A stretch of DNA of 20,000 nucleotides from an uncultured virus (IMG/VR IMGVR_UViG_3300029288_000154) (IMGVR_UViG_3300029288_000154); one strand, 5' to 3'. Shown: positions 5 to 18,055, numbered from the stretch's first letter. Notes: a model not told the origin generated them from the sequence alone. Translations and numbers: made by a program.

Positions 5-301
5 ATGTTTTCCGGTGAGGGAGAACTTAAATTATTTGGCCCGAATAATATGTGGAACAAAATTTATACATCTGATGATTTTTGCGAATGGTTGAAAGAT
101 ATAATTGAATTGAAAACGTCTACATTTGTTCTCCAAGAAAGAAGCAAACAAATCTATGTTGACCAAATGGATGAATCCCCGTTGAGAAAACATTTATTCA
201 AGAAATTGATAGAACAGGCAGAAAAAGAATTGGAAAGAGATAAGAAATTTATCGAACAATTGAACCGGTTAATAAAAGATATTAAGGAGTTTTCAATATG
301 A
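5..301 (+). CDS. hypothetical protein (may be 5'-truncated by the window edge)
   Basis: 98-aa ORF with a charged, coiled-coil-like C-terminus; its TGA overlaps the ATG of the next ORF (ATGA at 298-301). Confidence 0.7.
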   Translation: MFSGEGELKLFGPNNMWNKIYTSDDFCEWLKDIIELKTSTFVLQERSKQIYVDQMDESPLRKHLFKKLIEQAEKELERDKKFIEQLNRLIKDIKEFSI

Positions 302-435
302 AGATTTCGTTATATTTGACAGGGCGGTCGTTGTTTTATTGTATAAACGATAACCATAAGTCCTGGCAATTTTTCTCATTGGGTAACGGATATTCTCATG
401 ATTATACCGTTAGAAACAAATTTGGAATTTGTTAA
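298..435 (+). CDS. MKI-family microprotein (45 aa)
   Basis: Manual translation MKISLYLTGRSLFYCINDNHKSWQFFSLGNGYSHDYTVRNKFGIC*; ATGA overlap upstream, TAATG overlap downstream; not in ORF track. Confidence 0.7.
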   Translation: MKISLYLTGRSLFYCINDNHKSWQFFSLGNGYSHDYTVRNKFGIC

Positions 436-617
436 TGAAAATAAAGCTTAAAATTACACAGGATTGTTTGTTTTATAGTTATGACATAATTAACAATAAA
501 CCAAAAAGAAAACAACAAACGTTTTCGGCTGAATTGAAACATTTGTCGTTTACTGGCTGTATTAGAAGAAACAAATATAGATTCGTTTCGTCAGTTAACA
601 ACGTTTGGGACTGGTAG
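435..617 (+). CDS. MKI-family microprotein (60 aa)
   Basis: MKIKLKITQ...IRRNKYRF; ATG at 435 overlaps the upstream TAA. Confidence 0.7.
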   Translation: MKIKLKITQDCLFYSYDIINNKPKRKQQTFSAELKHLSFTGCIRRNKYRFVSSVNNVWDW

Positions 618-619
618 CT

Positions 620-832
620 GTGAAAATAAAATTATTGTTACACCACGATGATTATTACAAATACAATTTATATTGTCTTCAAACTTGTGTGCGTGGAAAA
701 TTTGTAAATATGAGTCAATTACATATTTTACAACCTATGTTTGGATATCATGAGAAAATAAGAAAACAATTTGGAATTTGCTACTATGCGCGAAACCCTA
801 AATGTCAATCATACAGAAAGAAGCACCAATGA
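620..832 (+). CDS. MKI-family microprotein (70 aa)
   Basis: GTG start, (M)KIKLLLHH...IRKQFGIC; shares FGIC with 298..435; stop overlaps the Nudix ATG. Confidence 0.65.
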   Translation: MKIKLLLHHDDYYKYNLYCLQTCVRGKFVNMSQLHILQPMFGYHEKIRKQFGICYYARNPKCQSYRKKHQ

Positions 833-1263
833 AAGCTCTTGAATATACCGGACCACGTTGCGACCAAGCAGTCGATATCGCCATTTTCAATTCAACCATG
901 ACTGAAATTCTTCTTGGTCGTAAAGAACACCAACCTCATTTTCGTTTCATTGGTGGGTTCTCTTCAGTTGATTCAGATTCCCTTGAAGAAGATGCCATAA
1001 GAGAAGTTGAAGAAGAAACTGGATTGGTTGTTGAAAATCCAGCATATGTCGGAAGTCGCAAAGTTGACGACCCAAGATACCACGGAACAATTCACGCAAT
1101 CAAAACGTGCTTGTTCTTTACTATTGGTTATGAAGGAACAGCAAAAGCTAACGATGATATTTTTGAAGTCAAATGGTTTCCGGTTGACGTATTCCTAAGA
1201 ATGGAAATGATGCCGGAACATATGAAGCTTCGGGATATGATTGTTCGTTCGGGGGTTGTGTGA
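829..1263 (+). CDS. Nudix hydrolase (ADP-ribose pyrophosphatase-like)
   Basis: Nudix box GGFSSVDSDSLEEDAIREVEEETGL plus DDPRY and ANDDIFEVKW segments; start chosen at the ATGA overlap (829). Confidence 0.9.
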   Translation: MKALEYTGPRCDQAVDIAIFNSTMTEILLGRKEHQPHFRFIGGFSSVDSDSLEEDAIREVEEETGLVVENPAYVGSRKVDDPRYHGTIHAIKTCLFFTIGYEGTAKANDDIFEVKWFPVDVFLRMEMMPEHMKLRDMIVRSGVV

Positions 1264-1487
1264 AGATAATATTAAACATTTCAAAACGACCTGTTAACTA
1301 TAGAGAAAATCAAGCAGCGTTGTTTTTCTTAACCTCCGATGATATGAACGTTCCAACGAGGTTGTTATTCGAACATTTTAAGATTGAAAATATTTACGAA
1401 ATTATAGACCATTCGGAGAAATTTCTAAAGAGAATGAAATGTTATGATGAGTTTAACGAATATTATTTTGGAAAGAAACCAGAATGA
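1260..1487 (+). CDS. MKI-family microprotein (75 aa)
   Basis: GTGA overlap start; MKIILNIS...KRMKCY. Confidence 0.65.
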   Translation: MKIILNISKRPVNYRENQAALFFLTSDDMNVPTRLLFEHFKIENIYEIIDHSEKFLKRMKCYDEFNEYYFGKKPE

Positions 1488-1663
1488 AAAACTTTTGGAG
1501 AATTTGGGCAAAGTCTATTGGGCAAAAAGATGGAAAGACGGATAAAGATTCAGACAACATCGCCATCGTCAGAACTCTGTTTGTTTTGTCAACTCTTTTT
1601 GGAATTTTCTTTTCAACAATAACCAACATATTCATCATAGCTGGAGTAATCAAGCATTGGTAA
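1484..1663 (+). CDS. small membrane protein (59 aa)
   Basis: Manual translation MKNFWRIWAKSIGQKDGKTDKDSDNIAIVRTLFVLSTLFGIFFSTITNIFIIAGVIKHW*; long hydrophobic C-terminal half; ATGA overlap. Confidence 0.8.
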   Translation: MKNFWRIWAKSIGQKDGKTDKDSDNIAIVRTLFVLSTLFGIFFSTITNIFIIAGVIKHW

Positions 1664-1860
1664 CACTTCATCTAATATGGTCAGAGTACACAGTTAACGC
1701 GTTTCGGTTTGTATCTCCAACTGATGTTATGATTCTAACCGCAGATTTCAAAGAATTTGATTTGCCAAGAATCTCAAAAAGAAAATTGGTGGTCGTGTAT
1801 AAAACTTTCGCCAAACCTAATTATTATCTTTCTGAGGCTCCTGTAATAAAGAAATGGTGA
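1657..1860 (+). CDS. microprotein, possibly a divergent MKI-family member
   Basis: TTG start; its ...LPRIS...VYKTFAK segment resembles the AYETFKRR/SYVTFKRR subfamily. Confidence 0.5.
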   Translation: MVTLHLIWSEYTVNAFRFVSPTDVMILTADFKEFDLPRISKRKLVVVYKTFAKPNYYLSEAPVIKKW

Positions 1861-1894
1861 ATAAAAACAAAAATAACAATATAAAAGAAAGGAC

Positions 1895-1923
1895 TTGACT
1901 TTGAGTTAATTTAACCGTATATT
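1895..1923 (+). promoter_or_regulatory. sigma70-type promoter
   Basis: TTGACT-N17-TATATT with an A-rich upstream tract, followed by SD AGGAGG and the ATG at 1946. Confidence 0.8.
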
Positions 1924-1945
1924 ACTAGCTGGAGAAGGAGGTTCT

Positions 1946-2209: not shown

Positions 2210-2225
2210 ACATAAACGAGGTTGA

Positions 2226-2846: not shown

Positions 2847-3697
2847 ACACAGATACGCTTGAAAAAATCGTTGACACTTCTTTCTTTGTTGAAAATAAAA
2901 TCAACGAAGGAAACAAAAACGCGAAAGCCAATCTTAAGAAATGTCTGCCTTTAGAAGTTCCTGTTCTACAAGAATTGGCGCAAGATACAAAGACAGATTT
3001 TATGGAAGGTTATGATAATAGATTTCCAAGAATCAATATGAGTGTTGTTAATGATTCATATAAACAAATCAACGGCGTTAACGTTCCTGCATTTGCTGTA
3101 TATGATGTTTTCTCTCAAAATAACACATACGAAAAAGAATTTGTTATTAGTTCCACGACAGAATACAAATACGAACATGCTCTTTCAAAACTAATGGTTC
3201 CTCACAATCCGACGATGATGAAGTTATATAATCATGTTTGGAGAAACTATGACTACGGGGGAGAAGCGCCGTTTTTGGTTTTGGGTATTAGTGGAACTAT
3301 CGTTGGTTTACTCTGTACGTTTCTCCCGACACCATTTTTAATAAAATCCATATTCTTGCCAGTTGTTGTCATATCAATGTTGTCGGTGATTTATGGCATT
3401 GTCATTGCCAAATTCTCTACAAATTCTGTAGGAATCTCCCGGAAGTTCTCCCATACGTTTTCGGGGATGATTCCGGACGATGTTCGTAAAACCGTCGTCT
3501 CTGAACGACCAAAATTCAATAAGATTCTTCTTGTTGAGGAATCGTATAATTGGAAAATTGATGATTCTATTGAACTACAAAAGAAGCCAAATTCCGACCC
3601 ACTAATTGTTGGTGAGATAAAAGGCAAACATTTTCTTATCACCTCGTTCGTCGTCACACCACTTGAAAAGCTACTCGCTCAAGAATTCTCCGCATAA
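2843..3697 (+). CDS. membrane protein with two TM helices
   Basis: 284 aa; two adjacent hydrophobic segments (FLVLGISGTIVGLLCTFL, IFLPVVVISMLSVIYGIVIA); SD AGGAG. Confidence 0.8.
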   Translation: MNTDTLEKIVDTSFFVENKINEGNKNAKANLKKCLPLEVPVLQELAQDTKTDFMEGYDNRFPRINMSVVNDSYKQINGVNVPAFAVYDVFSQNNTYEKEFVISSTTEYKYEHALSKLMVPHNPTMMKLYNHVWRNYDYGGEAPFLVLGISGTIVGLLCTFLPTPFLIKSIFLPVVVISMLSVIYGIVIAKFSTNSVGISRKFSHTFSGMIPDDVRKTVVSERPKFNKILLVEESYNWKIDDSIELQKKPNSDPLIVGEIKGKHFLITSFVVTPLEKLLAQEFSA

Positions 3698-3703
3698 TTT
3701 AAC

Positions 3704-3733
3704 AAAGAGCCGTTTTAACAGGCGGCTCTTTTT
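3704..3733 (+). terminator. rho-independent terminator
   Basis: AAAGAGCCGTT-loop-GGCGGCTCTTTTT hairpin plus T-run directly after the stop at 3697. Confidence 0.8.
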
Positions 3734-3745
3734 ATTCGAGGAACA

Positions 3746-4455
3746 ATGATTTATAAATTCGGAAAAAAGAAAGAAGCTATAAACAACCAAGATTTTGAAG
3801 CGTTTAAAAAATTTCTAACCGATGAGTTTGGAAAAATATGTAATTGTAAATTTTCTATTTCTCTTCTTAATCTTCTTTGGAAGAGTGTTTCTTTTAATAT
3901 GTATGGAATGACGAATTTTGAAAACGCGTTCCGATATTGTTATACCGAAAAGAATGTTCATAATAAAAATTACCATATTGAATTTCCAAAGTTCGTTGAG
4001 AAATACAACGAGCACAAAAAAAAAATTACGATGATTGGGTTCGCCGATTCAATGTCATATCTGCTAACTATGAATTTTTAAAAATATATTTAACAAACTT
4101 CTGTAAAAAATTTCCGGAATTAAAAACAACAGATATTTGTGAACTTAAATATAGTCAATTAGAATTTACAAAATTTGGTTTGAATTTTCAAATAGACTTG
4201 TATAATTTAGATTGTGATTCTGTTTCAAATGTTATTATTCAATGTGGATATTTTGAGTTCAAACTTATAGATTTCGTAAACCACACCCACAAGATTGTTA
4301 AAACTATAAAGTCAAGATTAAAAGAAATAGAAAATTTACAATTATCAAGAGACAACGAACAGAGGAAAATAGAATCCGAATATGACGAAAAGACAAAAAA
4401 GTTAAACGACGACTTCGGCAAACAAATAAACTCACTAAAACAAATAGAGGTATAA
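3746..4455 (+). CDS. hypothetical protein split by a frameshift at an A10 run (about 236 aa if joined)
   Basis: The frame of ORF 4180..4455 is open from 4000 and overlaps ORF 3746..4081; A10 at 4016-4025 lies in the overlap; a -1 shift reads ...EHKK(K)NYDDWVRRF... Confidence 0.65.
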
Positions 4456-4457
4456 CC

Positions 4458-4790
4458 ATGTATCACGCAAATATTGTGACTTCTACGGCCAAAACTTTGA
4501 AAGATTTTAGCGCATACAAAGTTGAAGAATCAAATGAAAAAGGAATCAAAGTAAAAATTGTTAAACTTTGTAAATGTCAAGATTGTGGAAAAGAATGTGT
4601 TGAAGATAACGAAATGATTATCAACCAAGATTTTCCTAACACGTTTCAGCAGAACATTTTCAATTTTAATTCGGAAGTTCATGGAATGTTGAAGCAAATG
4701 GGCCTGGTTAAGCTGGCAAAACTTCCTGAAACAATTCAAAGAAAAAATGAAAAGAAGATTTGTTCAATTTGTATGCTGGAGGTAGAATGA
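4458..4790 (+). CDS. putative Zn-binding hypothetical protein
   Basis: CKCQDCGKEC and C-terminal CSIC motifs; SD GAGG. Confidence 0.75.
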   Translation: MYHANIVTSTAKTLKDFSAYKVEESNEKGIKVKIVKLCKCQDCGKECVEDNEMIINQDFPNTFQQNIFNFNSEVHGMLKQMGLVKLAKLPETIQRKNEKKICSICMLEVE

Positions 4791-5608
4791 TTGTTTTAGA
4801 GAAAGCTGTTGTAGGAACTAGAAGTTTCTTTACAGATGAAAATGTTCAAAAATGTAAAGAAATTGAAAAGGAATTAGTTGATAATGGTTTTACAATAGAC
4901 AGACCTAGATATGGTAATAATTTTATTATTGAAAGTTATGGAGCCTCAATTCGGGTTAAAAAATATGGATTGCTGTTAACTCTAAACATCCAACAACCAT
5001 CATGTAATAACAAAAATGACAAAATTGTTTTTGAATCTAACGAAAATCAAATCTTCTTTGACATCAATAAAGTCGTTGATTATTTCGAATCCTACAAGAT
5101 TAAAGAAGAAAAAAGAAAGATTCGTGAAAATTGTGCAGCTTTCAACGAACCGATGTTGATTTCTTACATTGAAGGGACTTTACATTTTGCTGGAATAGAA
5201 TATGAAAAAGAAACTCAATATCACTGCACATATTTCAAAACTCCAAATTTCAAACTAACTTATGTAAAACTACCTCCCGGAAAATTGGCGAAATTAAACA
5301 TCAAAAACATTGACTTGCGTTTGGAATATACAAGAAATTCAAAAAATTATTCTTGTGAAATAAAATTCACAAAGTTTGTTGAATCTCCTGAAACATATAT
5401 GGAAGAGATTGCTACTTATATTGACGAATTGAACGCTGCGAACGAAAAGCTATGTAAGATACGAACTGATTATGCGAACCAAATAAAACAAATCGAAGCT
5501 GAGTTGGGTAAAACCGCTCAAAAAGGTTTTGATTTGAATAAAAAGAAATATGAATCGCAAATGAAAGAAATGTTTAAGAAGAAAAATGTTGAAAATTCCA
5601 ATTGCTGA
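4787..5608 (+). CDS. hypothetical protein with a C-terminal coiled coil
   Basis: Start reassigned to ATG 4787 (SD GGAGG, ATGA overlap); 273 aa. Confidence 0.8.
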   Translation: MIVLEKAVVGTRSFFTDENVQKCKEIEKELVDNGFTIDRPRYGNNFIIESYGASIRVKKYGLLLTLNIQQPSCNNKNDKIVFESNENQIFFDINKVVDYFESYKIKEEKRKIRENCAAFNEPMLISYIEGTLHFAGIEYEKETQYHCTYFKTPNFKLTYVKLPPGKLAKLNIKNIDLRLEYTRNSKNYSCEIKFTKFVESPETYMEEIATYIDELNAANEKLCKIRTDYANQIKQIEAELGKTAQKGFDLNKKKYESQMKEMFKKKNVENSNC

Positions 5609-5619
5609 TTTTCTAAAAG

Positions 5620-5874
5620 ATGATTGTTAATATTTTCAAAAGATTATTAGGGAAAAAGAACCACAAACTTGTATTTAAGTGGAGTAAACGCCCATACATA
5701 ATAAAAGCCGGACATTTTATATGGAATACTGTGGGATATGACGGACACACTCCAAAACCAATAGCTGTTAAATTAAATGTCGCAAGAGAAACGGTAATTT
5801 TTGAAACAGAAAATAAGTTACATAGACGCGGACTTACCATAATGAATCATCCACGTATGAGAAAATGGCAATGA
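5620..5874 (+). CDS. microprotein family member (N-terminal extension subtype)
   Basis: MIVNIFKRLLG...HPRMRKWQ. Confidence 0.65.
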   Translation: MIVNIFKRLLGKKNHKLVFKWSKRPYIIKAGHFIWNTVGYDGHTPKPIAVKLNVARETVIFETENKLHRRGLTIMNHPRMRKWQ

Positions 5875-6134
5875 TTAAAAAGTTTATTCGTAAAATTTTC
5901 CGTAGAGAGAAAATACTGAAAATAACTACAAAAATTGAAACAAAGATGGCTTTACGAACAGCATTCACAAATCCGGCTATTTGTTACTATCATGTTAATT
6001 TTGTATTTAGAAAACGACACAATAATAAATTTTATATTAAGCTAATTACCTTTTATCATTTCTATCTAAGAACCAAATCGTTTTCTAATAATTATGCTGA
6101 TTTCAAACGGCTTCACAAATGGGATTCTAGGTGA
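5871..6134 (+). CDS. microprotein family member (N-terminal extension subtype)
   Basis: ATGA overlap; MIKKFIRKIF..LKITTKI...FKRLHKW; paralog of 6689..6925. Confidence 0.7.
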   Translation: MIKKFIRKIFRREKILKITTKIETKMALRTAFTNPAICYYHVNFVFRKRHNNKFYIKLITFYHFYLRTKSFSNNYADFKRLHKWDSR

Positions 6135-6250
6135 AAATTTCCATATCTTTTGTCGATGGTTATATTCAAAAAACACCCGCTTATTCTTCTCTCGTTTCAT
6201 CTTTCTTCAACAAATTTAATTCAAGGATGCTGAAATGGAAATCGCGTTAA
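6131..6250 (+). CDS. MKI-family microprotein (39 aa)
   Basis: GTGA overlap; MKISISFVDGYIQKTPAYSSLVSSFFNKFNSRMLKWKSR*. Confidence 0.6.
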   Translation: MKISISFVDGYIQKTPAYSSLVSSFFNKFNSRMLKWKSR

Positions 6251-6534
6251 ATGATTGTATTGGTATTCTGTTCATCAAAACAAAACATCTAAAAGAAACC
6301 TATCGTGTTGTTTATCTAACTTCTCTTGATGAACTTTATTACGATGACATTCTTGAAAAAATGACAACGGACGCTAATGTGGTTTTAGAAAATGCTCGAA
6401 TTTTATTTTCAGATTCGCCGGTTCTTCTTTCGAGAGAACTTGCGTATTCTGTTGCAGACGAAATTCAAATTGAAAAGAAATCCAAACAAGGAATTAAATT
6501 GATTTCTATTCCAACAACGGATGATGAATTTTGA
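6235..6534 (+). CDS. hypothetical phage protein
   Basis: 99-aa acidic ORF with SD AAGGA; not a member of the MKI family. Confidence 0.75.
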   Translation: MEIALNDCIGILFIKTKHLKETYRVVYLTSLDELYYDDILEKMTTDANVVLENARILFSDSPVLLSRELAYSVADEIQIEKKSKQGIKLISIPTTDDEF

Positions 6535-6692
6535 GAATCAAATTAAAACTGAGAATGGGCTATTCTTTTGATAACACCTGTCATTTCTTTTTATTTGCCG
6601 AGACCGATTCTGAAAAAAATTTGGAATACAAAATGTCAAGATGGTTTAGATTTCAAACAACAAAAACAAAACGATTGAGAAAATATAAATGA
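6531..6692 (+). CDS. MKI-family microprotein (53 aa)
   Basis: TTGA overlap; MRIKLKLRMG...KTKRLRKYK*; ATGA overlap downstream. Confidence 0.65.
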   Translation: MRIKLKLRMGYSFDNTCHFFLFAETDSEKNLEYKMSRWFRFQTTKTKRLRKYK

Positions 6693-6925
6693 TTAATAAT
6701 TTTTTTAAAAAATTATTTTGTAGCGAAAGAGCAACAACAAAAATTATAACTCTGATTGAACTAAATAAATTAAACACAGACTCAATTGACGTTTACTTTA
6801 TTTTTAAGAATTTACAAAAAAGAACATTTAAAATAATAGCTTATGGATATTGTAACCAAATTCAGTTTTTCACAAGCGGATATGATAAATTTCCAAGACT
6901 TCATAAATGGACGAAAAACAAATGA
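6689..6925 (+). CDS. microprotein family member (N-terminal extension subtype)
   Basis: MINNFFKKLF...TKIITLI...FPRLHKW. Confidence 0.7.
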   Translation: MINNFFKKLFCSERATTKIITLIELNKLNTDSIDVYFIFKNLQKRTFKIIAYGYCNQIQFFTSGYDKFPRLHKWTKNK

Positions 6926-7074
6926 AAATTAACATGATGTTTTACTACGAATGTTTAAGAAATGATAATCAATGTTATCCGGGGTTCTTGATTTCCAATT
7001 CTTTTATTTATAGCGTAACAAAAAACACATGCTTGTTAAAAAGAATGGAGAAATGGAAATGCGAATTGGATTGA
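6922..7074 (+). CDS. MKI-family microprotein (50 aa)
   Basis: ATGA overlap; MKINMMFYYE...LLKRMEKWKCELD*. Confidence 0.65.
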   Translation: MKINMMFYYECLRNDNQCYPGFLISNSFIYSVTKNTCLLKRMEKWKCELD

Positions 7075-7211
7075 TTTGGCATGTGAGTAGAGTGAGAGAT
7101 GAATATTCTAGATTTGGTTTTTACATTCCATTTGAAGGCTGTCGCGTATCTTTTGATTTTTGCGGCGGAAACAAAACAAGAAAAGATAGATATCAAATTA
7201 AGATAACATGA
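7059..7211 (+). CDS. MKI-family-like microprotein (50 aa)
   Basis: MRIGLIWHVS...KTRKDRYQIKIT; stop overlaps the next ATG. Confidence 0.55.
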   Translation: MRIGLIWHVSRVRDEYSRFGFYIPFEGCRVSFDFCGGNKTRKDRYQIKIT

Positions 7212-7378
7212 TACTTAAAACAGCATTTATTCAATATCAAAACGTAACCAAGGTCAAATTTACATGTGATGTATTTTATATTTTCGTTGCTTCTGAAAAT
7301 AAATATTACATTCTAGATTTCTGTCCACCACCAAAAAGATTAGAAAAATATAACAAATTTGAGATTTTTAACAAATGA
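7208..7378 (+). CDS. MKI-family microprotein (56 aa)
   Basis: ATGA overlaps at both ends; MILKTAFIQ...PKRLEKYNKFEIFNK*. Confidence 0.65.
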   Translation: MILKTAFIQYQNVTKVKFTCDVFYIFVASENKYYILDFCPPPKRLEKYNKFEIFNK

Positions 7379-7554
7379 AAATAAAACTAAAAATATTTCC
7401 AGATTATTACGGATATAACTTTGATATGGTCCATACAAAGTTCTGTATTGATTTTGAAGACGACCCGCGTGGAGTTTTCTGGTTCAAAAAATTAACGACC
7501 AGATTTGTGAAGATGTATAAACAAGAAATTAAACTAAACAACTATTATAACTAA
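7375..7554 (+). CDS. MKI-family microprotein (59 aa)
   Basis: MKIKLKIFPD...TTRFVKMYK...; manual translation. Confidence 0.7.
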   Translation: MKIKLKIFPDYYGYNFDMVHTKFCIDFEDDPRGVFWFKKLTTRFVKMYKQEIKLNNYYN

Positions 7555-7563
7555 GGAGAAACA

Positions 7564-9000: not shown

Positions 9001-9002
9001 TA

Positions 9003-9296: not shown

Positions 9297-9329
9297 TACT
9301 AGAAAATAACATTTTTGTAGAATAATAAA

Positions 9330-10340: not shown

Positions 10341-10522
10341 ATAAATTTGTTCTGAAATTTTCAAAACTAACGTATTGGAAATGTGAGATGTGGGTTAATC
10401 AAGAAGAAGGAGATGCAGAAACCAGAATATTTGGGTTCTTCGCACCGGCTTTTGTAAATGATAAACATTACCTTGGCGACCAAAATTTTTATAAAAACCC
10501 GCGCTTACAGAAATGTTTGTAA
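10337..10522 (+). CDS. microprotein family member (61 aa)
   Basis: ATGA overlap start; MNKFVLKF...NPRLQKCL. Confidence 0.65.
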   Translation: MNKFVLKFSKLTYWKCEMWVNQEEGDAETRIFGFFAPAFVNDKHYLGDQNFYKNPRLQKCL

Positions 10523-10767
10523 TGAAAATAAAAACAAGAATTGGTTTTGGTTATCATGATTATCCTTTTGTAATTATAGGAAAACATCATTTCTCTGATA
10601 ATCTCCGGAATAATACTTGGGTGGTTAAATACAGAGGTAAGTATTCAACAACAATCGTAGTAAAAGAAATTAGTAGAGACGTTCTAAGAAAACTAAATCA
10701 ATTACACAAAACAATTGAAATAATAAACACAATTTCAAATAATTATATCATACAAGGTAAAATGTGA
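10522..10767 (+). CDS. MKI-family microprotein (81 aa)
   Basis: TAATG overlap; MKIKTRIGFG...; resembles 16823..16966 (MKIKTDIGGFG). Confidence 0.7.
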   Translation: MKIKTRIGFGYHDYPFVIIGKHHFSDNLRNNTWVVKYRGKYSTTIVVKEISRDVLRKLNQLHKTIEIINTISNNYIIQGKM

Positions 10768-10982
10768 AAATTAAACTAAGATTAGAACCGAGATTATATT
10801 ATAGTGGTTGGGTTACTCTAACAACCGATTCTTTGAAAATGAGCTATAGCGAGACAGAAATGAACTCTCCGAAATGTAAAACCGAAAGCGGTGATAAATT
10901 ACTAAATTCAAACAAGAGATTTCAAAAGTGGTTCTTCACTACACTAGGACAAAATGGGGAATGTTTGAAAGATTCAGCTTGA
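10764..10982 (+). CDS. MKI-family microprotein (72 aa)
   Basis: GTGA overlap; MKIKLRLE...NKRFQKW; stop lies inside the promoter -35 box. Confidence 0.7.
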   Translation: MKIKLRLEPRLYYSGWVTLTTDSLKMSYSETEMNSPKCKTESGDKLLNSNKRFQKWFFTTLGQNGECLKDSA

Positions 10983-11011
10983 CTTGGAAAAAATAACCGC
11001 GTATATTAAAA
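10967..11011 (+). repeat. 45-bp direct repeat copy 1, containing a sigma70-type promoter
   Basis: GAAAGATTCAGC-TTGACT(10979-84)-N17-TATATT(11002-07)-AAAA; 43/45 identical to 11318-11362. Confidence 0.9.
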
Positions 11012-11054
11012 ATATATGATGACGAAATAAATAAATTTTTCAAAGGACAAAACC

Positions 11055-11333
11055 ATGTTAGACGCATTTAATTTGTGGTTTTATAATGACCAAAACGGTT
11101 CACCATGTTGTGTAAATAAAGATGAATTAACCGAAGATTTTATTAAAAAACTATACAACAAACTTCAACAAAAAAGAAATTGGAAAAAGAGCAACAATAT
11201 TGATGAGATGGTTAGTGAAATATCTACGTGGAATAAAGAGTCAACCGAAGCTATATATGAAGGAAGATATAGTTTCATCAATCCTAATTTTACAGACGAC
11301 ATTAAAAACAAAAATACGAAAGATTCGGCTTGA
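11055..11333 (+). CDS. hypothetical protein between the promoter repeats
   Basis: 92 aa, SD AAGGA; ends KDSA* inside repeat copy 2. Confidence 0.75.
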   Translation: MLDAFNLWFYNDQNGSPCCVNKDELTEDFIKKLYNKLQQKRNWKKSNNIDEMVSEISTWNKESTEAIYEGRYSFINPNFTDDIKNKNTKDSA

Positions 11334-11362
11334 CTTGGAAAAAATAACAGCGTATATTAAAA
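11318..11362 (+). repeat. 45-bp direct repeat copy 2, promoter upstream of the tRNA cluster
   Basis: GAAAGATTCGGC-TTGACT(11330-35)-N17-TATATT(11353-58)-AAAA. Confidence 0.9.
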
Positions 11363-11420
11363 GCATGAGGAAATGACATCCGGTGGTTCAAAGGACCGCT
11401 TGTTAATTCTGAATGACAAT

Positions 11421-11494
11421 GCAGCAAAAGCTCAATTGGATGAGCAGCCCGTTTCTACCGGGAAGGTTTGGGGGTTCAAAGCCCTCTTGCTGCG
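11421..11494 (+). tRNA. tRNA-Arg(UCU)
   Basis: Acceptor GCAGCAA/TTGCTGC, D stem GCTC/GAGC, anticodon stem CCCG/CGGG with loop TT-TCT-AC, T arm GGGGG-TTCAAAG-CCCTC; no CCA. Confidence 0.85.
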
Positions 11495-11546
11495 TTTCTA
11501 TTGCGACTTCTTTGACATTATGGGGAGGTGACGATTTGAGATAATT

Positions 11547-11890
11547 CGAATATTGGAGAAACTGGTAAACTCGGCGGACTCGTATGGGTCGCGTATACGG
11601 AAACGTATATGTAGTAAGATGTAATCCGAACTTGTTTCGGGTGTGTATAGCGAAAAAACAAATGGCTATACGCTAACGGCGAACACTTAACAGGTAATGC
11701 TGATGTCAACGCCGTGCCAAGTTCAATAAATATATTGAAACGGTTTAGAGACTATAATCATCCGCCTAAACGTAAAAGTATGGCGAAGGCATAGTCCAGA
11801 CCACAAACAGAGAAATCTGGTAGTGAAAACTATAGTGGTACGTAAAATCCGCTGCCGCAAGGCTTTTCGGTTCAAGTCCGAAATATTCGA
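11547..11890 (+). tRNA. tRNA-Leu(UAA), intron-containing (exons 11547-11580 and 11843-11890)
   Basis: Spliced arm GCGGA-CT^TAA-AA-TCCGC, acceptor CGAATAT/ATATTCG, long variable arm GCC-GCAA-GGC, T arm TTCGG-TTCAAGT-CCGAA, discriminator A. Confidence 0.9.
11581..11842 (+). ncRNA. group I self-splicing intron (262 nt, ORF-less)
   Basis: P1 GACT|C-GTAT-GGGTC with U.G at the 5' splice site; P4 ACGGCG(11676-81)/CGCCGT(11710-15); P6a TTCAATA/TATTGAA; P7 GAGACTA(11748-54)/TAGTC(11792-96); P8 CGCC/GGCG; GAAA-capped P9 hairpins; terminal G at 11842. Confidence 0.9.
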
Positions 11891-11906
11891 CTGGTAAAAG
11901 GAAAAT

Positions 11907-12506
11907 ATGAGAAAAAAGAGAGAATATAAAACAAAAGAACAAGGATTTGATAAGAATAAACATAGTCACGATGAATATTTTATTGACCTTGTTAATCGTG
12001 GAGTTCTTACAGTTACAAAAGATGGAATAGTAACGAACAATCTAACAAAAAATCAATTAGGAAAATGTAAAAATCCTAATAACTATGTAGTAATTGGTTA
12101 TTTTGAAAATGGAACGACCCGGCACATTCAAGTTCATAGACTTGTATGGATTTTGTTTGTCGGGCCTACAGGGACAAATGTCATCAACCACATAAATGGA
12201 ATAAAAACTGACAATCGTTTGGAAAATTTGGAATTGGTAACCGAATCTGAGAATAACCGACACGCTTTTAGTATAGGTCTTAAAGAAATTTCCGAAAAAC
12301 AAAGAGCGATTTCGCGGAAATTTATGATTGAAAATAATCCAAATCCAAATAAAACAAATCTTACAGAGGATGATGTTCGCGAAATTCGTAGATTGTCAAC
12401 GCCTTATAAAAGAGGAAGTGACAAAAAATTAGCGTTGATATACAATACCAGTAGAGAATTGATTTCTCAGATACGACGTAACTTAATATATAAATGGATT
12501 GAATAA
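11907..12506 (+). CDS. free-standing HNH homing endonuclease with a C-terminal HTH-like DNA-binding domain
   Basis: VHRLVW...INHINGIKTDNRLENLELVTESENNRH motif; C-terminal LTEDDVREIR...LALIYNTSRELISQIR. Confidence 0.9.
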   Translation: MRKKREYKTKEQGFDKNKHSHDEYFIDLVNRGVLTVTKDGIVTNNLTKNQLGKCKNPNNYVVIGYFENGTTRHIQVHRLVWILFVGPTGTNVINHINGIKTDNRLENLELVTESENNRHAFSIGLKEISEKQRAISRKFMIENNPNPNKTNLTEDDVREIRRLSTPYKRGSDKKLALIYNTSRELISQIRRNLIYKWIE

Positions 12507-12519
12507 GATATACCAAAAA

Positions 12520-12607
12520 GGAAGTTTGGCCGAGTCTGGTTTATGGCAGTGGTCTTGAAAACCACCAAAGTTAATAGCTTTCGAAAGTTCAAATCTTTCA
12601 ACTTCCG
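12520..12607 (+). tRNA. tRNA-Ser(UGA)
   Basis: Acceptor GGAAGTT/AACTTCC, anticodon arm GTGGT-CT-TGA-AA-ACCAC, long variable arm, T arm GAAAG-TTCAAAT-CTTTC, discriminator G. Confidence 0.92.
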
Positions 12608-12669
12608 TCAATATAAATAGCACCGACAGAAATAATTAAATATCAAAAACAACATTTTCATTCCACCCG

Positions 12670-12864
12670 ATGAAATCTTATTGACCGAAAAACAAATTTT
12701 TCCTTTTTCCTCGTCGTGTTTTTCAGAAGTCAACTGGAAAATATATTTACAAACTTGGAACTGTTTTATATGTAACGACTGTTAAGAAGTATTTCATTTC
12801 GATTATTCATCCCGAGACTACTACCGAGGACATTTTCCATAACCCGCAATATGTAATTGAATGA
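12670..12864 (+). pseudogene. possible decayed small ORF with an in-frame TGA at codon 5
   Basis: MKSY*PKNKFFLFPRRVFQKSTGKYIYK...; KFFLFPRRVF resembles KFFILPTRVF in ORF 13005..13214. Confidence 0.35.
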
Positions 12865-12888
12865 TTTTGAAACATAAATAAACTTTGA

Positions 12889-12970
12889 GGCTTGTATGTT
12901 CCAATGGTGGGACAGATGACTGTAAATCATCCGCTTAACCGCACGTCAGATTCGATCTCTGAACAAGCCA
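12889..12970 (+). tRNA. tRNA-Tyr(GUA)
   Basis: Acceptor GGCTTGT/ACAAGCC, anticodon arm GATGA-CT-GTA-AA-TCATC, long variable region, T arm TCAGA-TTCGATC-TCTGA. Confidence 0.85.
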
Positions 12971-13004
12971 TTTTCTATCTTTCAAAAACCCAAAGGTTAT
13001 AATC

Positions 13005-13214
13005 ATGCTAAATCACTCAGAACTCCAAAAAGATGCTATGCTTGCCATGGAACGTGCCAGAACGCAATCCAGCAATTCAAGCCATTCTCCCACCAATTCC
13101 AAATTTTTCATTTTGCCAACTCGTGTTTTCTCTAATTCTTCTCGTAGATTTGTTTGGAAATGGTTGTTTGTTTCCAACATCATCCAAACAAATTCTCGTT
13201 ACGAAATTCCTTAA
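13005..13214 (+). CDS. hypothetical small protein
   Basis: 69-aa ORF with an AAAGG SD-like element; a competing overlapping frame exists at 13033..13221. Confidence 0.4.
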   Translation: MLNHSELQKDAMLAMERARTQSSNSSHSPTNSKFFILPTRVFSNSSRRFVWKWLFVSNIIQTNSRYEIP

Positions 13215-13232
13215 AGTTTGAAAAGATTTCCC

Positions 13233-13261
13233 TTGCCTTTGATTTAATCTGGCGGTATATT
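13233..13261 (+). promoter_or_regulatory. sigma70-type promoter
   Basis: AAAAGATTTCCC-TTGCCT-N17-TATATT-AAAGG; near-identical ends to the promoter at 18152. Confidence 0.8.
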
Positions 13262-13283
13262 AAAGGTAACCCAAAGGAATCAA

Positions 13284-13883
13284 ATGTTCTCTCAATTCTT
13301 CAAAAAACAGAAGGCGATTAAGCTTCTCAACGAAAACAAGCAAAAGAATATTAAAGATGCTATTTTCAATGACGATGTTCGGAAAGCATTCTTTGATTTT
13401 GTCAAGTTGAACAAAAACGAAAATGTTCTTTTGATTGGTGGGTTGTCTGTTGGTGTTTTTTCTCAGGCAAGGAACACGCAGAATATTGACATTTTGGTTT
13501 TGTCGGAGAAAGATATTGATTCCGTTTTTGAAAATGTGAAATCTAAATTCAAGCGAACCAGAACCCATGCTTTTGAACATAAAGCTACGGGTGTTGAAAT
13601 TGAGGTTTTGACTCCTTCTTTCATTAAATATCCTGATTCAATTTTCAAAAAAGCTATTGATGCTGCGATTGTTCAGGATGTTGATGGGCGAGAAATCAAA
13701 ATTGTTTCTCCTAAATTTTTGATTGCTTTGAAACTTAAGAGAGCATCTTTGGCAATTAACAAAAGTCACATGGATAAGTATGACATTTCTAATTTGACTG
13801 ACATTTACGGAAAGTTTGATTTTTCTGATTTGGATTTGACTGATGATGAAATTGAAACTTACAAGGAACTGACTAGGAACTGA
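13284..13883 (+). CDS. Pol-beta-superfamily nucleotidyltransferase-like protein (AbiEii/DUF6036-like)
   Basis: LIGGLSV...RNTQNIDILV (GG...RxTxDxD-like with the first D as N), VEIEVL, and C-terminal LIALKL...DKYDI..L; SD AAGGA. Confidence 0.7.
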   Translation: MFSQFFKKQKAIKLLNENKQKNIKDAIFNDDVRKAFFDFVKLNKNENVLLIGGLSVGVFSQARNTQNIDILVLSEKDIDSVFENVKSKFKRTRTHAFEHKATGVEIEVLTPSFIKYPDSIFKKAIDAAIVQDVDGREIKIVSPKFLIALKLKRASLAINKSHMDKYDISNLTDIYGKFDFSDLDLTDDEIETYKELTRN

Positions 13884-13887
13884 CTAA

Positions 13888-14106
13888 ATGAAACCTCACA
13901 ACAAGTTTATTTTGTCGCTAATAATTTTCGCTATTTCTTTCATACCTGTTGTGATTTTGTTTTTCGGTTTTGTTAATCAATACACTCACAACTTTTTTAT
14001 TAACATTGGTTCTTTGATTTTTTCTTTAGTTGTTTTCCAATCAGTTGTTGAATTTTTGATTTTTCCTCGTTGTAAACCATCCACATTCAATCACGAAGAA
14101 TCTTAA
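13888..14106 (+). CDS. small two-TM membrane protein
   Basis: 72 aa with two hydrophobic stretches. Confidence 0.7.
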   Translation: MKPHNKFILSLIIFAISFIPVVILFFGFVNQYTHNFFINIGSLIFSLVVFQSVVEFLIFPRCKPSTFNHEES

Positions 14107-14108
14107 CT

Positions 14109-14720
14109 TTGCTCAAACTTCTTTTTCCAATTCCATCTGAGCCATTTGCTGTTGCTTTTTCTGGTGGAATTGATTCTGTAGTTGTTGTAGATTTTCTTCA
14201 GAGATTTCCGAGGAACAAGTTTTTTCTTCTTCATTTTAATCACCAAACAGAACATGGAAGAGAAGCTCAAGCATTTTCGGTCAATTTCGCAAAAGAAAGA
14301 AACTTAGGAATTGAACTAGGAACCATTCAAACAGAAAAGATGAAGAAAGAGAGTCGGGAAGAATATTGGAGAAGAGAACGTTATGATTTTTTTTCTAATT
14401 ACAAATGTCCTATTATCACGGCCCACCATTTGAATGATTGTCTAGAATATTGGATTTTTACATCTCTTAGAGGAAATGGGAAATTGATTCCTGCTAAAAG
14501 AGATAATTTTCTTCGTCCATTTTTGTTGACTTCTAAGAATGATATTAAAAATTGGGCTGAGAAAAACAAATTGACTTGGTGTGAAGACGAAAGCAACTCG
14601 GAAAACATTCATTCAAGAAACATCATCAGAAATGAAATGATGGAGATTTGTTTGAAAGTGAATCCTGGGTTGGAGAAAATGATTAGAAAGAAGATTTTGG
14701 GAGAGATGAAAAATGTATGA
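14109..14720 (+). CDS. tilS: tRNA(Ile)-lysidine synthetase, catalytic domain only
   Basis: PP-loop AVAFSGGIDS, HFNH, RRERY.FF, TAHHLND..E, RPFL, EDESN and SRN.IR motifs; TTG start; 203 aa. Confidence 0.88.
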   Translation: MLKLLFPIPSEPFAVAFSGGIDSVVVVDFLQRFPRNKFFLLHFNHQTEHGREAQAFSVNFAKERNLGIELGTIQTEKMKKESREEYWRRERYDFFSNYKCPIITAHHLNDCLEYWIFTSLRGNGKLIPAKRDNFLRPFLLTSKNDIKNWAEKNKLTWCEDESNSENIHSRNIIRNEMMEICLKVNPGLEKMIRKKILGEMKNV

Positions 14721-15099
14721 AATAAAAGTTTACTATCACACAGGAGATACGTTCAAATCATATGACACCGACACAACTCTTGGTGGAGAATGGAATCTTG
14801 AAACCGCTAAAGAAAATCTAAAGCGTATCAAGAAGCATTACGAATATTACTCAAATCTTAGAAATTATGTTTCGATTGGCAAAAGCGAAACACAATTGCT
14901 TGAAGATTTGAAAAATGAAGAGTTCTATGTTTCGGATAAATATCATGGACCGTCTTGGAATTGGACAATCAATCTTTTAGAAAACGATGGAAGCAAACGA
15001 GAATATAACGTTGCTTGGTGTGGATATTTCGAAAGATTGTTAGGAGCAGAAATCATTTCTAAAGTTCCTGAAGAAGACCAAATGAGGTTTGTTGTTTGA
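14713..15099 (+). CDS. hypothetical phage protein
   Basis: 128 aa, SD GGAGA, overlaps the tilS end. Confidence 0.8.
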   Translation: MYEIKVYYHTGDTFKSYDTDTTLGGEWNLETAKENLKRIKKHYEYYSNLRNYVSIGKSETQLLEDLKNEEFYVSDKYHGPSWNWTINLLENDGSKREYNVAWCGYFERLLGAEIISKVPEEDQMRFVV

Positions 15100-15304
15100 A
15101 AATAGAAACATACATTTACGACGTAGACACTTCGGAGATTTGCGCTGATGGTATTTACTTTGTTACGGAAACTTCCATGATGTAGTTTGTTTAGAATTTG
15201 ATGAGTTGGAAGGAAACATAATCAGAATTCCTAAAATGAATGTAGATAGAAGCAATTCCTACAAAACTTTAGCAAGAAGATTGAAAAAAGAATTGGTTTA
15301 TTGA
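15096..15304 (+). pseudogene. frameshifted MKI-family microprotein
   Basis: The TTGA-overlap start MKIETYIY... stops at TAG 15183-85; the -1 frame, open from 15149, encodes ...LEFDELEGNIIRIP...SYKTLARRLKK, matching 9547 and 9988. Confidence 0.6.
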
Positions 15305-15643: not shown

Positions 15644-15728
15644 GCAGCGGTATGCAAATTGGTCTAAGCAGCCTGACTCATAATCAGGTGCCAGAAATGG
15701 TTTGAGAGATCGTACCTCTCCCGCTGTA
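15644..15728 (+). tRNA. tRNA with CAU anticodon (Ile2 probable, Met possible)
   Basis: Acceptor GCAGCGG/CCGCTGT, anticodon arm CCTGA-CT-CAT-AA-TCAGG, long variable arm CCA-GAAA-TGG, T arm GAGAG-ATCGTAC-CTCTC; tilS about 0.9 kb upstream. Confidence 0.85.
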
Positions 15729-16004: not shown

Positions 16005-16015
16005 GGAAATAATAA

Positions 16016-16366: not shown

Positions 16367-16390
16367 TTACCCAAAAAAGGAAAAATAAAA

Positions 16391-16735: not shown

Positions 16736-16747
16736 GATAAAGGCTTC

Positions 16748-16818
16748 GCTCGCATAGGTAAATGGTATACCAAGGAATTTGTAATTCTTAATTTTCTGTT
16801 CGATTCAGAATGTGAGCA
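16748..16818 (+). tRNA. tRNA-Thr(UGU)
   Basis: Acceptor GCTCGCA/TGTGAGC, D stem GGTA/TACC, anticodon arm AGGAA-TT-TGT-AA-TTCTT, T arm TTCTG-TTCGATT-CAGAA. Confidence 0.9.
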
Positions 16819-16822
16819 TCTC

Positions 16823-16966
16823 ATGAAAATTAAAACAGACATTGGAGGTTTTGGAATTTATTCCAAAACCTTTTATTATTCTTATTCAAACAGATGGTGT
16901 GTTTATTTTGACACCCCGTTTGAAATTCGCACAACCTTAGTCGCAACAAGATTTAACAAGTTATGA
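16823..16966 (+). CDS. MKI-family microprotein (47 aa)
   Basis: MKIKTDIGGFGIYSK...VATRFNKL*; starts 4 nt after tRNA-Thr; ATGA overlap downstream. Confidence 0.7.
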   Translation: MKIKTDIGGFGIYSKTFYYSYSNRWCVYFDTPFEIRTTLVATRFNKL

Positions 16967-17145
16967 AAATTTCAACTTACATAAAATTTATTTCTAAAAC
17001 AAATCCGCTCGAAATCCGATACGAAAAATATGAACCTACTATTGTTGACCATTTTGTTGATAATTTCAGTACAACCTTCTTATCACCAAACACAAACTTC
17101 TATAGGTTTTCTAAAATTTTTCCAAACTGCGTAATTGAAGATTAA
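16963..17145 (+). CDS. MKI-family microprotein (60 aa)
   Basis: MKISTYIK...RYEKY...YRFSKIF. Confidence 0.7.
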   Translation: MKISTYIKFISKTNPLEIRYEKYEPTIVDHFVDNFSTTFLSPNTNFYRFSKIFPNCVIED

Positions 17146-17281
17146 ATTAACTCTCCATACATATCCTAATTTGGGTCAATTTTATTTTGTTCGTTATGAA
17201 AAATACCAACAACCTTTTGGGTTCTTTGGTTTTAATGGATACAGAAGGTTTTCTTATTGTAACCGAGTAAAACTAAGGTAA
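17135..17281 (+). CDS. MKI-family microprotein (48 aa)
   Basis: TTG start (M)KIKLTLHT...RYEKY...YRRFSY; paralog of the previous ORF. Confidence 0.65.
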   Translation: MKIKLTLHTYPNLGQFYFVRYEKYQQPFGFFGFNGYRRFSYCNRVKLR

Positions 17282-17287
17282 TATATT

Positions 17288-17462
17288 TTGAAAATCCAAA
17301 CAAGATTTAACATGATGAAAAAGGGGGAATTCTGGTTTTCTGTTTTAGGAACGCTTACAGTTGATATTTACTCAGATATAAAAAAAACTATTCTTAGACA
17401 ATCCTGAATCAAACAAGCTCAGATTAGCTAAAACATTTAGTGGTTATAAGAGATTCGTATGA
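17288..17462 (+). pseudogene. MKI-family microprotein frameshifted in an A8 run
   Basis: (M)KIQTRFNM...SDIKK; removing one A from A8 (17380-17387) continues LFLDNPESNKLRLAKTF...RFV* and ends in an ATGA overlap with 17459. Confidence 0.6.
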
Positions 17463-17722
17463 AAATCAAATGGATAATTACAGAGTATAATATTTTTATC
17501 ACCGAAAATTTTGAGTTTGATTTTCCGTCAAGAGAATACCGAATAGACGGGGTTCTTAATCAAACAACTCCATTCAACTCATCCAAATTATGTAAGAGAT
17601 TGGCAAGATATTTTCGTTTCGAGCATGAATATGATTTTCACGAAACTTATTGGGATGCTGAAGAGTATTGTCAAGAAGTTGAATTCGATAACGAAAACAA
17701 GTTTGATAAATATGAAAATTGA
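17459..17722 (+). CDS. MKI-family microprotein (87 aa) with an acidic tail
   Basis: MKIKWIITE...LCKRLARYF. Confidence 0.7.
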   Translation: MKIKWIITEYNIFITENFEFDFPSREYRIDGVLNQTTPFNSSKLCKRLARYFRFEHEYDFHETYWDAEEYCQEVEFDNENKFDKYEN

Positions 17723-17864
17723 AACGAGATTTTATACTTGGCGTTGCTATACTATTTTCTTATCTGGACAAGAAGAATTGTTTTCGTTATGTTTGGAAGA
17801 ACTTGATTACCGTTATCCAATTAAAACATCTGTAAATTTGAAACGATTAAGGAAAATCTTTTGA
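17712..17864 (+). CDS. MKI-family microprotein (50 aa)
   Basis: ATG at 17712; MKIETRFY...LKRLRKIF*. Confidence 0.7.
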   Translation: MKIETRFYTWRCYTIFLSGQEELFSLCLEELDYRYPIKTSVNLKRLRKIF

Positions 17865-18055
17865 AGATTAGGCTTTTGTTAACTGCGACAAAAATACAAA
17901 CAAAACAATTTGAAATTTGGTGGCCGATTGTTGAGAATAATTGTCAACTATACCAGTGGGTTAAATTTGATTGTGATAATTTGTGCCGACGCCTCGGAAA
18001 ATATTATTCCGTAACATATATTTATTTTGAAGATAGATTTGTTTCGGGAATGTGA
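17861..18055 (+). CDS. MKI-family microprotein (64 aa)
   Basis: TTGA overlap; MKIRLLLT...LCRRLGKYY; paralog of 17459. Confidence 0.7.
   Translation: MKIRLLLTATKIQTKQFEIWWPIVENNCQLYQWVKFDCDNLCRRLGKYYSVTYIYFEDRFVSGM

Follow-up and report, generated by a model that had tools for sequence, protein, structure and literature searches.

The 20,000-nucleotide stretch of DNA analyzed here (the window), from the uncultured virus IMGVR_UViG_3300029288_000154 of the IMG/VR collection, contains four arrays of small same-strand genes, which comparative analysis of their ends, codons and relatives shows to form one lineage-specific, protein-coding multigene family. Huge phages carry many unexplained small genes, and here a single orphan family of about 28 genes, located in the four arrays and at one isolated position, fills about 27% of 20 kb (about 5.4 kb by coordinate sum). 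The architecture of the family is simple: two short conserved handles enclose a free middle. The explanation that we favor, and to which we give about an even chance, is that the arrays encode lineage-specific small basic proteins that were tandemly amplified, diverge fast, are translated by re-initiation, and probably act as host-directed accessory proteins.

The start and end motifs that had suggested a family in the initial annotation are far more frequent than in shuffled sequence. Open reading frames (ORFs) of 35-100 amino acids (aa) that start with ATG, GTG or TTG followed by codons for K or R and for I number 25 on the + strand and two on the - strand, and the same M[K/R]I count in 200 dinucleotide shuffles has a mean of 1.71 (sd 1.38, maximum 7). 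Ten of the 25 also have R[LMF]x[KR][WYFLIC] within their last 25 aa, a combination that the shuffles yield 0.03 times on average and at most once. Among the other genes of the window, 2 of 25 have an M[KR]I start (those at 1946 and 18564). Five genes that do not have the exact start (5620, 5865, 6689, 7208, and 10325) were also counted as members; they lie in arrays and have the C-terminal motif or a paralog. All N-termini quoted in the initial annotation are present (MKIKLK, MKIKTS, MKIQLK, MKIETR, MKISTY, and MKIRLL), as are its C-terminal pentamers (RLHKW twice, RMRKW, RMLKW, RMEKW, RMNKW, RFQKW, RLRKY, RLEKY, RLGKY, RLARY, and RFNKL).

The four arrays, all on the + strand, lie where they were first described. 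Array A (298-832) consists of the genes 298-435, 435-617 and 620-832, which begin with MKISLY, MKIKLK and, from a GTG codon, MKIKLL, and are joined by 1-nt and short junctions. Array B (5620-7554) has nine family genes (5620-5874, 5865-6134, 6131-6250, 6531-6692, 6689-6925, 6922-7074, 7059-7211, 7208-7378, and 7375-7554) and is interrupted by an unrelated acidic 99-aa gene on the same strand (6235-6534); its ORFs tile the array without gaps and overlap by 4-16 nt, and the products of 5620, 5865 and 6689 have an additional basic-aromatic N-terminal extension. Array C (9330-10982) has eight family genes (9330-9557, 9547-9732, 9729-10010, 9988-10182, 10179-10340, 10325-10522, 10522-10767, and 10764-10982), and array D (16823-18055) has seven (16823-16966, 16963-17145, 17135-17281, 17288-17407, 17459-17722, 17712-17864, and 17861-18055). 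Only one of the three isolated members proposed initially is retained without reservation. The gene at 1260-1487 (+ strand) starts with GTG, reads MKIILN..., carries FLKRMKC near its end, overlaps the stop codon of a Nudix gene by 4 nt, and is matched by the family hidden Markov model (HMM), whose training set includes this gene. The other two are doubtful: 1657-1860 (+ strand, TTG start, MVTLHL..., end VIKKW) lacks an MKI start and is missed by the family HMM, and 15096-15185 (+ strand, TTG start, MKIETY...) encodes 29 aa, of which the HMM matches the N-terminus only, with an E-value of 7.6.

The family recurs in a related genome. An M32 (carboxypeptidase Taq-type) peptidase gene (7564-9000, + strand; Pfam PF02074, E 1.3e-107) has family arrays on both sides, and a search with its product found three metagenome contigs at 62-63% identity. 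In one of these, L004 (63% identity; 35% GC), all 21 M[KR]I ORFs of 35-100 aa lie on the + strand; shuffles give 2.3 +/- 1.6. When MKV and MKA starts are included, L004 has about 29 members, with the same ends and in arrays that flank the M32 gene. Across the window and L004 the members are 39-93 aa long.

Conserved ends and unalignable middles

At the N-terminus of the 57 members from the window and L004, K stands second in 47 and I or V third in 51; the fifth residue is L, T, F, M or I in 51, and the seventh is I, L, F or V in 46. T is frequent at position 8, and the consensus reads M-K-[IV]-x-[LTF]-x-[ILFV]-T. Residues 2-8 have a beta hydrophobic moment of 0.84, compared to 0.36 for other 7-mers of the same proteins. 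The C-terminal consensus, K-R-[LMF]-x-K-[WYF], is built on a nearly invariant arginine (at least 90% conserved in the 30 sequences of alignment A4), and the hydrophobic residue that follows the arginine (M, F, L, I or W) is encoded by nine codons. The initial claim that most members carry this motif was too generous: the strict form is present in 31 of the 57, and several others have shifted variants. The 11 residues around the motif have a helical moment of 0.45, compared to 0.26 elsewhere, and 48% of these segments exceed the 90th percentile.

The codons of both ends are variable. The motif arginine is encoded by AGA (18 times), CGG (4), CGA (4), AGG (2), CGC (2) and CGT (1), codon 3 is ATT (21), ATA (14), ATC (9) or a valine codon, and the distance from the end of the motif to the stop codon ranges from 0 to 36 residues. 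Because six arginine codons are used, codon 3 varies, and the motif has no fixed distance from the stop, the ends are shown to be constrained at the protein level, as a predicted amphipathic beta-strand at the N-terminus and a predicted amphipathic basic helix near the C-terminus. The members are also unusual in composition. Their median isoelectric point is 9.5 in the window and 9.8 in L004, with 47 of the 57 above 9, compared to about 6.5 for other genes, and F, Y and W together make up 16.5% (window) and 16.8% (L004) of the family proteins, compared to 11.4% and 12.5% in the other genes.

The middles, defined as residue 9 to the C-terminal motif (median 36 aa), behave quite differently. In an all-against-all local alignment of 57 middles the mean score is 19.61, which falls within the range of 10 composition-matched shuffles (19.19-19.78), and only the single best pair rises above the shuffles. 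The middles are therefore as unalignable as the initial annotation had described them, and it is the ends that carry the family-wide signal.

The C-terminal motif is not restricted to the small proteins. Its strict form occurs in 3 of 48 non-family proteins, each time within the last 15 residues of an L004 protein of 227-243 aa that is encoded beside an array (2220-2903, 5364-6056, and 6031-6762; KRMGKW..., ...RFEKYL); two of the three are tandem paralogs. Since the non-family occurrences are confined to the ends of these three array-adjacent proteins, the predicted helix is a motif that behaves as a portable C-terminal module.

The sequences within one genome reveal how the family may have grown. 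All-against-all blastp of 59 sequences gave nine pairs with E <1e-3, all of them within one genome and mostly between neighbors, and no pair between genomes reached this threshold (best E 0.002-0.003 over about 25 residues). Only four pairs of window members reach E <1e-3, among them 5865 and 6689 in array B (E 8e-9), 9547 and 9988 in array C (E 3e-9), and 17459 and 17861 in array D (E 1e-5). In the array C pair, the 47-nt junction that comprises the C-terminus and the next start is 81% identical (repeat D3). Because paralog pairs are found only within a genome, and because of the junction repeats, we infer growth of the family by tandem duplication together with very fast divergence or turnover. 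When an HMM is trained on the window alone, 12 L004 members are among its top 13 of 346 six-frame segments and rank ahead of any segment from the - strand. The proposal of a family that has greatly expanded and is diversifying rapidly, with its termini fixed and its middles variable, is borne out by its recurrence in L004, the lack of cross-genome pairs at E <1e-3, and the constraint on the ends.

The predicted structures are consistent with, at most, a sketch of a fold. For the protein encoded by 9547-9732, AlphaFold2 with family alignments gave a mean predicted local distance difference test score (pLDDT) of 62 and only a C-terminal helix (residues 44-60), with 10-residue blocks averaging up to 82 (C-terminus) and 74 (N-terminus). 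The model of the 6922-7074 product had a mean pLDDT of 58, strands at residues 6-12, 17-23 and 29-31, and a helix at 36-49. Both models place a helix on the C-terminal motif, and, low in confidence as they are, they fit a strand-hairpin-helix (beta-beta-beta-alpha) outline that falls short of an established fold. The common fold that the initial annotation had anticipated was therefore not obtained. The Foldseek matches to PAS, SH2, PUR-repeat and COMMD proteins were at noise level and were discarded, look-ups in the ESM Atlas gave no usable lead, and a complex prediction for a homodimer gave no answer (score 0.02, mark 0.42). The short basic-aromatic helix at or near the C-terminus has the amphipathicity expected of membrane-targeting helices, both in its moment (0.45 versus 0.26) and as a helix in the AlphaFold models. 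We take it to resemble C-terminal membrane-targeting helices of the MinD and FtsA type, a likeness for which amphipathicity alone was measured here.

Coding signal and probable translation of the arrays

Although stop codons are frequent in DNA of about 30% GC, ORFs of 39-93 codons fill the arrays end to end. A codon model was trained on non-family genes only and applied to the family ORFs after removal of their first and last eight codons, with stops ignored. This model ranked the annotated frame first in 21 of 28 family ORFs in the window and in 22 of 29 in L004, where chance would give one third; in leave-one-out controls with other genes that frame came first in 23/23 and 19/19. In addition, near-identical variants of four L004 members from other assemblies keep the full length and differ by 1-6 residues.

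Family starts frequently overlap the upstream stop codon by 4 nt (NTGA; 13 of 28 in the window and 15 of 29 in L004). Two of the 28 window starts overlap by 1 nt, and the rest overlap by 10-23 nt (10, 11, 16, 23) or follow a gap. A match of at least 4 nt to a Shine-Dalgarno (SD) site precedes 6 of 28 family genes in the window and 6 of 29 in L004, compared to 19 of 25 and 12 of 24 other genes. Both the overlapping junctions and the scarcity of SD sites had been noticed initially, and both are upheld by these counts. The start codons are ATG (18), GTG (5) and TTG (5) in the window, and ATG in 27 of 29 L004 members. Many NTGA overlaps combined with few SD sites point to translation of the family genes by coupling of termination to re-initiation. 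The same overlap is common at non-family starts (14 of 25 in the window and 13 of 24 in L004, or 27/49); it is therefore not special to the family and does not explain it.

At four places (5865, 6235, 6907, and 10325) the K-W codons of the motif, AAATGG, contain the ATG with which the following ORF opens in a different frame, so that the C-terminal motif sometimes doubles as a downstream start. Array D, for its part, has its first gene 5 nt past the 3' end of a tRNA-Thr gene (16748-16818, ARAGORN), with no SD site; if the tRNA is cut from the transcript, the array D mRNA would be nearly leaderless.

Three other readings of the junctions were set aside. That the conserved start serves as a stop in other frames was rejected: a +2 stop occurs within 18 nt in 14/28 and 10/29 family genes, compared to 11/25 and 7/24 others. 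That the arrays are one long gene with repeated frameshifts was rejected because the members begin with start codons (ATG in 27/29 L004 members, and ATG, GTG or TTG in the window). That the C-terminal motif is a disguised SD site was rejected because its distance from the next start varies and because six arginine codons are used.

A promoter-like element, TTG[A/C]CT-17 nt-TATATT, has five copies on the + strand (at 1895, 10979, 11330, 13233, and 18152). The first, TTGACT-17-TATATT, spans 1895-1923. The others are part of a 45-nt repeat (family D1) on the same strand: one copy directly after array C (10967-11011; a sigma-70-type match in 10 of 12 positions), a second that is 96% identical to it and lies ahead of tRNA-Arg (11318-11362), a diverged copy ahead of the gene 13284-13883 (13221-13265), and one directly after array D (18140-18184). 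The copies directly after arrays C and D would place the arrays within long transcription units or at their ends, and the repeat is probably this phage's own promoter consensus for the host RNA polymerase. A similar promoter-like set (TTGACA...CTATATT) is present in another contig with the same M32 gene, L002.

An alternative explanation is that the ORFs are translated filler, whose ends do no more than sustain re-initiation along a polycistronic RNA devoid of SD sites, for example as protection against Rho or RNases, or as padding for the genome; the start NTG-AAA-ATH-AAA and a basic C-terminus would then be conserved and the middles would drift freely. The shuffle-like middles, the rare SD sites with common NTGA overlaps, the base composition of the arrays (at 28-30% GC the most AT-rich parts of the window), the weaker codon signature of the middles, and the low confidence of the structural models all agree with this explanation. 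However, the six codons of the invariant arginine and the 0-36 residues between motif and stop leave no fixed RNA signal, residues 3, 5 and 7 are hydrophobic regardless of codon and give a strong beta moment, and about 75% of the middles keep the codon bias of the annotated frame. The motif also ends the three larger L004 proteins, one of which has no overlapping gene after it, and NTGA junctions, being common at non-family starts too, offer no explanation for the family. We consider it unlikely that the arrays are filler.

A proposed host-directed repertoire and its rivals

Under the explanation that we favor, tandem duplication would make the arrays grow and turn over, after which the middles would diverge very fast or be replaced. 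The genes would be transcribed within long + strand units from the repeated sigma-70-like element, and the members translated one after another by termination and re-initiation at NTGA overlaps, not from SD sites of their own. The two ends may be a minimal scaffold, or docking handles, that present the variable middle, and the predicted C-terminal helix plausibly binds the membrane or a common partner. Small basic proteins encoded in a tRNA-rich accessory region could most simply be a repertoire of host-directed binders for takeover or counter-defence, whose diversity would be maintained by an arms race. If the handles are a scaffold or docking device, the arrays would represent a natural library of small host-aimed binders and a clear viral case of birth-and-death evolution.

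Several observations weigh against this explanation. The middles being statistically the same as shuffled sequence, the case for common descent is carried by about 15 terminal residues and a few paralog pairs, and the strict C-terminal motif reaches only 31/57 members. The HMM comparison is weaker in the reverse direction: trained on L004 and applied to the window, the three top-ranking matches are members (E 0.011-0.032), and the fourth is a segment of the - strand (E 0.065). A shared fold is unsupported, because the models have mean pLDDT values of 62 and 58 and a Foldseek search of the PDB with a low-confidence model gave nothing at E <2. The codon margin of the middles is 0.06-0.10 nats per codon, compared to 0.18-0.25 in other genes, and the abundance of F, Y, N, K and I is what AT drift alone would yield. 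The sequencing runs that match the window amount to one DNA run from a landfill metagenome, possibly the source, and no RNA run. A PADLOC search with five members provides no link between the family and any defence system. As to expression, promoter-like sites in total (90) are not above shuffles (78.9 +/- 8.9), the repeated element is a consensus match only, and early timing would be read from this consensus promoter scan and nothing else.

A further possibility is that the conserved unit is not the protein but the junction, that is, the helix codons, the stop/start overlap and the strand codons, which would act as a plug-in adaptor. Any insert between two junctions would gain re-initiation without an SD site, a minimal fold or localization, and a site for homologous recombination, and the arrays would be a nursery in which near-random AT-rich sequence is turned into new small proteins and shuffled. 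Such a nursery would yield shuffle-like middles between ends selected at the protein level, and would account for the C-terminal module on three larger neighboring proteins. We hold it to be distinctly unlikely; if the junction is indeed the functional unit, it would show a phage expressing, and possibly inventing, many small proteins without ribosome-binding sites.

The proteins might instead be packaged in the virion and injected, with the conserved N-terminus, and perhaps the C-terminus, as a targeting signal. We judge this very unlikely. To our knowledge, about 28 genes in 20 kb far exceed known sets of internal proteins. The window does place conserved ends on otherwise unrelated small basic bodies, but the arrays lie amid tRNA, TilS-type, Nudix, HNH and M32 genes and behind sigma-70-like elements, with no recognizable head module; no protease cleavage motif was identified, and Pfam and PHROGs searches revealed no head protease gene in the window. 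The internal proteins of T4-type phages, which suggest the comparison, have a common short N-terminal capsid targeting sequence on diverse bodies and are counter-defence cargo, and their diversity is thought to be upheld by host defences (PMC3012670). The family resembles them in its short conserved N-terminus, at most a candidate targeting signal, on diverse small proteins (K2 in 47/57, I/V3 in 51/57); it differs in a conserved C-terminus, which the T4 signal does not require, in its far higher copy number, and in a window with neither a link to a head module nor an identified cleavage site.

Finally, it is highly improbable that the ORFs encode precursors of a processed peptide library resembling ribosomally synthesized and post-translationally modified peptides, with the flanks as recognition sequences and the M32 peptidase trimming the tails after the C-terminal motif: fixed flanks around a hypervariable core, tails of 0-36 residues past the motif, and an M32 gene between arrays in both the window and L004 would fit, but M32 is the only adjacent candidate, no tailoring enzyme was found in the window (Pfam, PHROGs, NCBIfam, larger proteins), conservation at the N-terminus extends over only about 8 residues, the cores of 25-50 aa have no Cys or Ser/Thr pattern, and the reading is weak because L002 keeps the M32 gene among quite different neighbors and without any array.

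Known families, comparable arrays and genomic setting

In agreement with the initial annotation, which had recognized no named family, none of the collections searched contains one. The best PHROGs v4 match for 29 members has an E-value of 0.038. Pfam-A revealed no shared family: 50 members gave two isolated single-member hits (Alpha-amylase, 5e-5; TSGP1, 0.0075), and four further members gave none. Five members had no match in PADLOC. Word-indexed protein searches with alignment A2 at near lengths, member 5865 and alignment A4 at longer lengths returned only the query itself and no fused forms, and tblastn of member 5865-6134 against 50,697 phage records had no match with an E-value of 0.1 or less. 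When 1.84 billion representative proteins were searched exhaustively with the profile, there were eight hits at E <=1e-3, all of them members from the window or L004 or near-identical L004 variants, with no match outside the lineage; distant relatives could be missed by this search, because the profile is weak (members not seen in training score about 17 bits or less). Full-text searches of the literature revealed no described family of this kind. The initial statement that short members are missed by ORF callers holds only in part, since three window members are present in the public protein collection. The conserved ends should help to detect such genes where ordinary homology searches overlook them.

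Tandem arrays of paralogs are already known in jumbo phages. Phages G and 121Q have tandem arrays with more than 30 genes that closely resemble each other (Hua et al. 2017, PMC5646251). Like these, the family belongs to a very large phage (a 305-kb contig) and consists of dozens of head-to-tail copies on the same strand, and tandem duplication, the explanation given by Hua et al. (PMC5646251), would account for both. Unlike the "very similar" copies of G and 121Q (PMC5646251), the members described here share only about eight N-terminal and about six C-terminal residues, are divided among four or more arrays, and lack any detectable counterpart in L004 even though its M32 protein is 63% identical. 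This extreme divergence with only both ends conserved is what is unusual here, together with the overlapping genes that are poor in SD sites and the reuse of the C-terminal module on larger proteins.

Two other systems suggest how such arrays might originate and change. In the laboratory, the counter-defence gene tifA of T4 underwent segmental amplification by recombination (Srikant et al. 2022, PMC9391042). This small accessory gene belongs to a large lytic phage on which host defence exerts selection, and its tandem amplification offers a plausible origin for such arrays; the copies of tifA are recent and identical (PMC9391042), whereas those described here are ancient or evolve very fast. 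In the lpl tandem paralog cluster of Staphylococcus aureus, homologous recombination was proposed to take place at conserved stretches (Tsuru and Kobayashi 2008, PMC2568036) and to reshuffle variable parts. The conserved stretch of lpl is central and the ends vary (PMC2568036), whereas here the ends are conserved and the middle varies, so that recombination would swap whole middles. The lpl cluster differs further in its bacterial host and in encoding larger lipoproteins (PMC2568036).

The window is, on the evidence of the 305-kb contig, its gene content and the homologs of one partial protein, an accessory region of an uncultured huge phage. Proteins of the window have been recorded from a contig of 305,169 bp, and near-identical DNA is absent from the 50,697 phage records. 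The partial protein (19235-19999) is 50% identical to a protein of a 291-kb IMG/VR contig (L001) and shares 40-53% identity with hypothetical proteins encoded by Vibrio and Rhizobium phages about 154-208 kb in size. GC content varies between 28 and 40% per kb, and virtually all plausible genes are on the + strand. ARAGORN predicts five tRNAs, three of which attain the Rfam gathering score, and the Rfam scan of the window found tRNAs only. Besides a Nudix hydrolase (Pfam), the products include an HNH endonuclease (11907-12506; Pfam HNH_3, phrog_59) encoded between tRNA-Arg and tRNA-Ser.

A PP-loop protein of the TilS type (14109-14720) matches the NCBIfam TilS N-terminal domain with 115 bits (cut-off 93.6), and about 0.9 kb downstream of its gene lies an 85-nt tRNA with anticodon CAT (15644-15728), which is below the Rfam gathering score. 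The two could be a candidate phage lysidine system that reads AUA isoleucine codons. These codons are used heavily in this AT-rich genome, and ATA is codon 3 in 14 family genes.

In L004 the arrays are interleaved with genes for a class II aminoacyl-tRNA synthetase (2-919, a fragment at the edge of the locus), ClpP (4171-4737), an SPFH/Band 7 protein (6832-7611) and a complete initiation factor IF3 (8197-8592), and the contig additionally encodes a metallophosphatase and a GHKL ATPase. A phage IF3 beside genes that are poor in SD sites and partly without ATG starts may bear on their initiation.

The search for further relatives in IMG/VR was negative. L001 has no array in the 20 kb fetched, and family profile A1 has no match in the whole record; no relatives came from scans with the phrog_10176-like protein, the M32 protein or an M32 alignment. 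A scan for a degenerate MKIKLKI-type start, which serves as a negative control and is not exhaustive, gave at least 116 loci, and none of the 80 whose flanks were examined had more than six M[KR][IV] ORFs of 35-100 aa or more than one with the C-terminal motif.

A separate array is found in Vibrio phage VB_VaC_SRILMA (PP083314.1), an isolated phage and a distant relative, whose homolog of the 19235-19999 protein is 53% identical. About 14 small paralogs, annotated as hypothetical proteins, lie there in tandem and partly overlap (some by 4 nt) at 10249-14584 (8559-14584 for the whole row), between the tRNA region and the shared homolog. They have in common only a C-terminal ending, ...HPE[EL]FI (variants ...[HYRC]PE[ELHF][FLM]I), and their bodies vary. 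This is a different family: the best match of the window HMM has an E-value of 0.25, and the proteins are about 95-134 aa long (about 90-134 aa over the whole row), end in acidic residues and lack the MKI start. Because SRILMA carries this separate array of terminally tagged paralogs, such arrays may be a recurring theme in the wider phage group. SRILMA also has a homing endonuclease within its tRNA cluster, comparable to the HNH gene of the window. In another IMG/VR contig (L063, 161,475 bp), adjacent small MRI/MKI ORFs with acidic-aromatic tails are found on the reverse strand at 3248-4230 and 6985-7236, and these may be another small set of paralogs.

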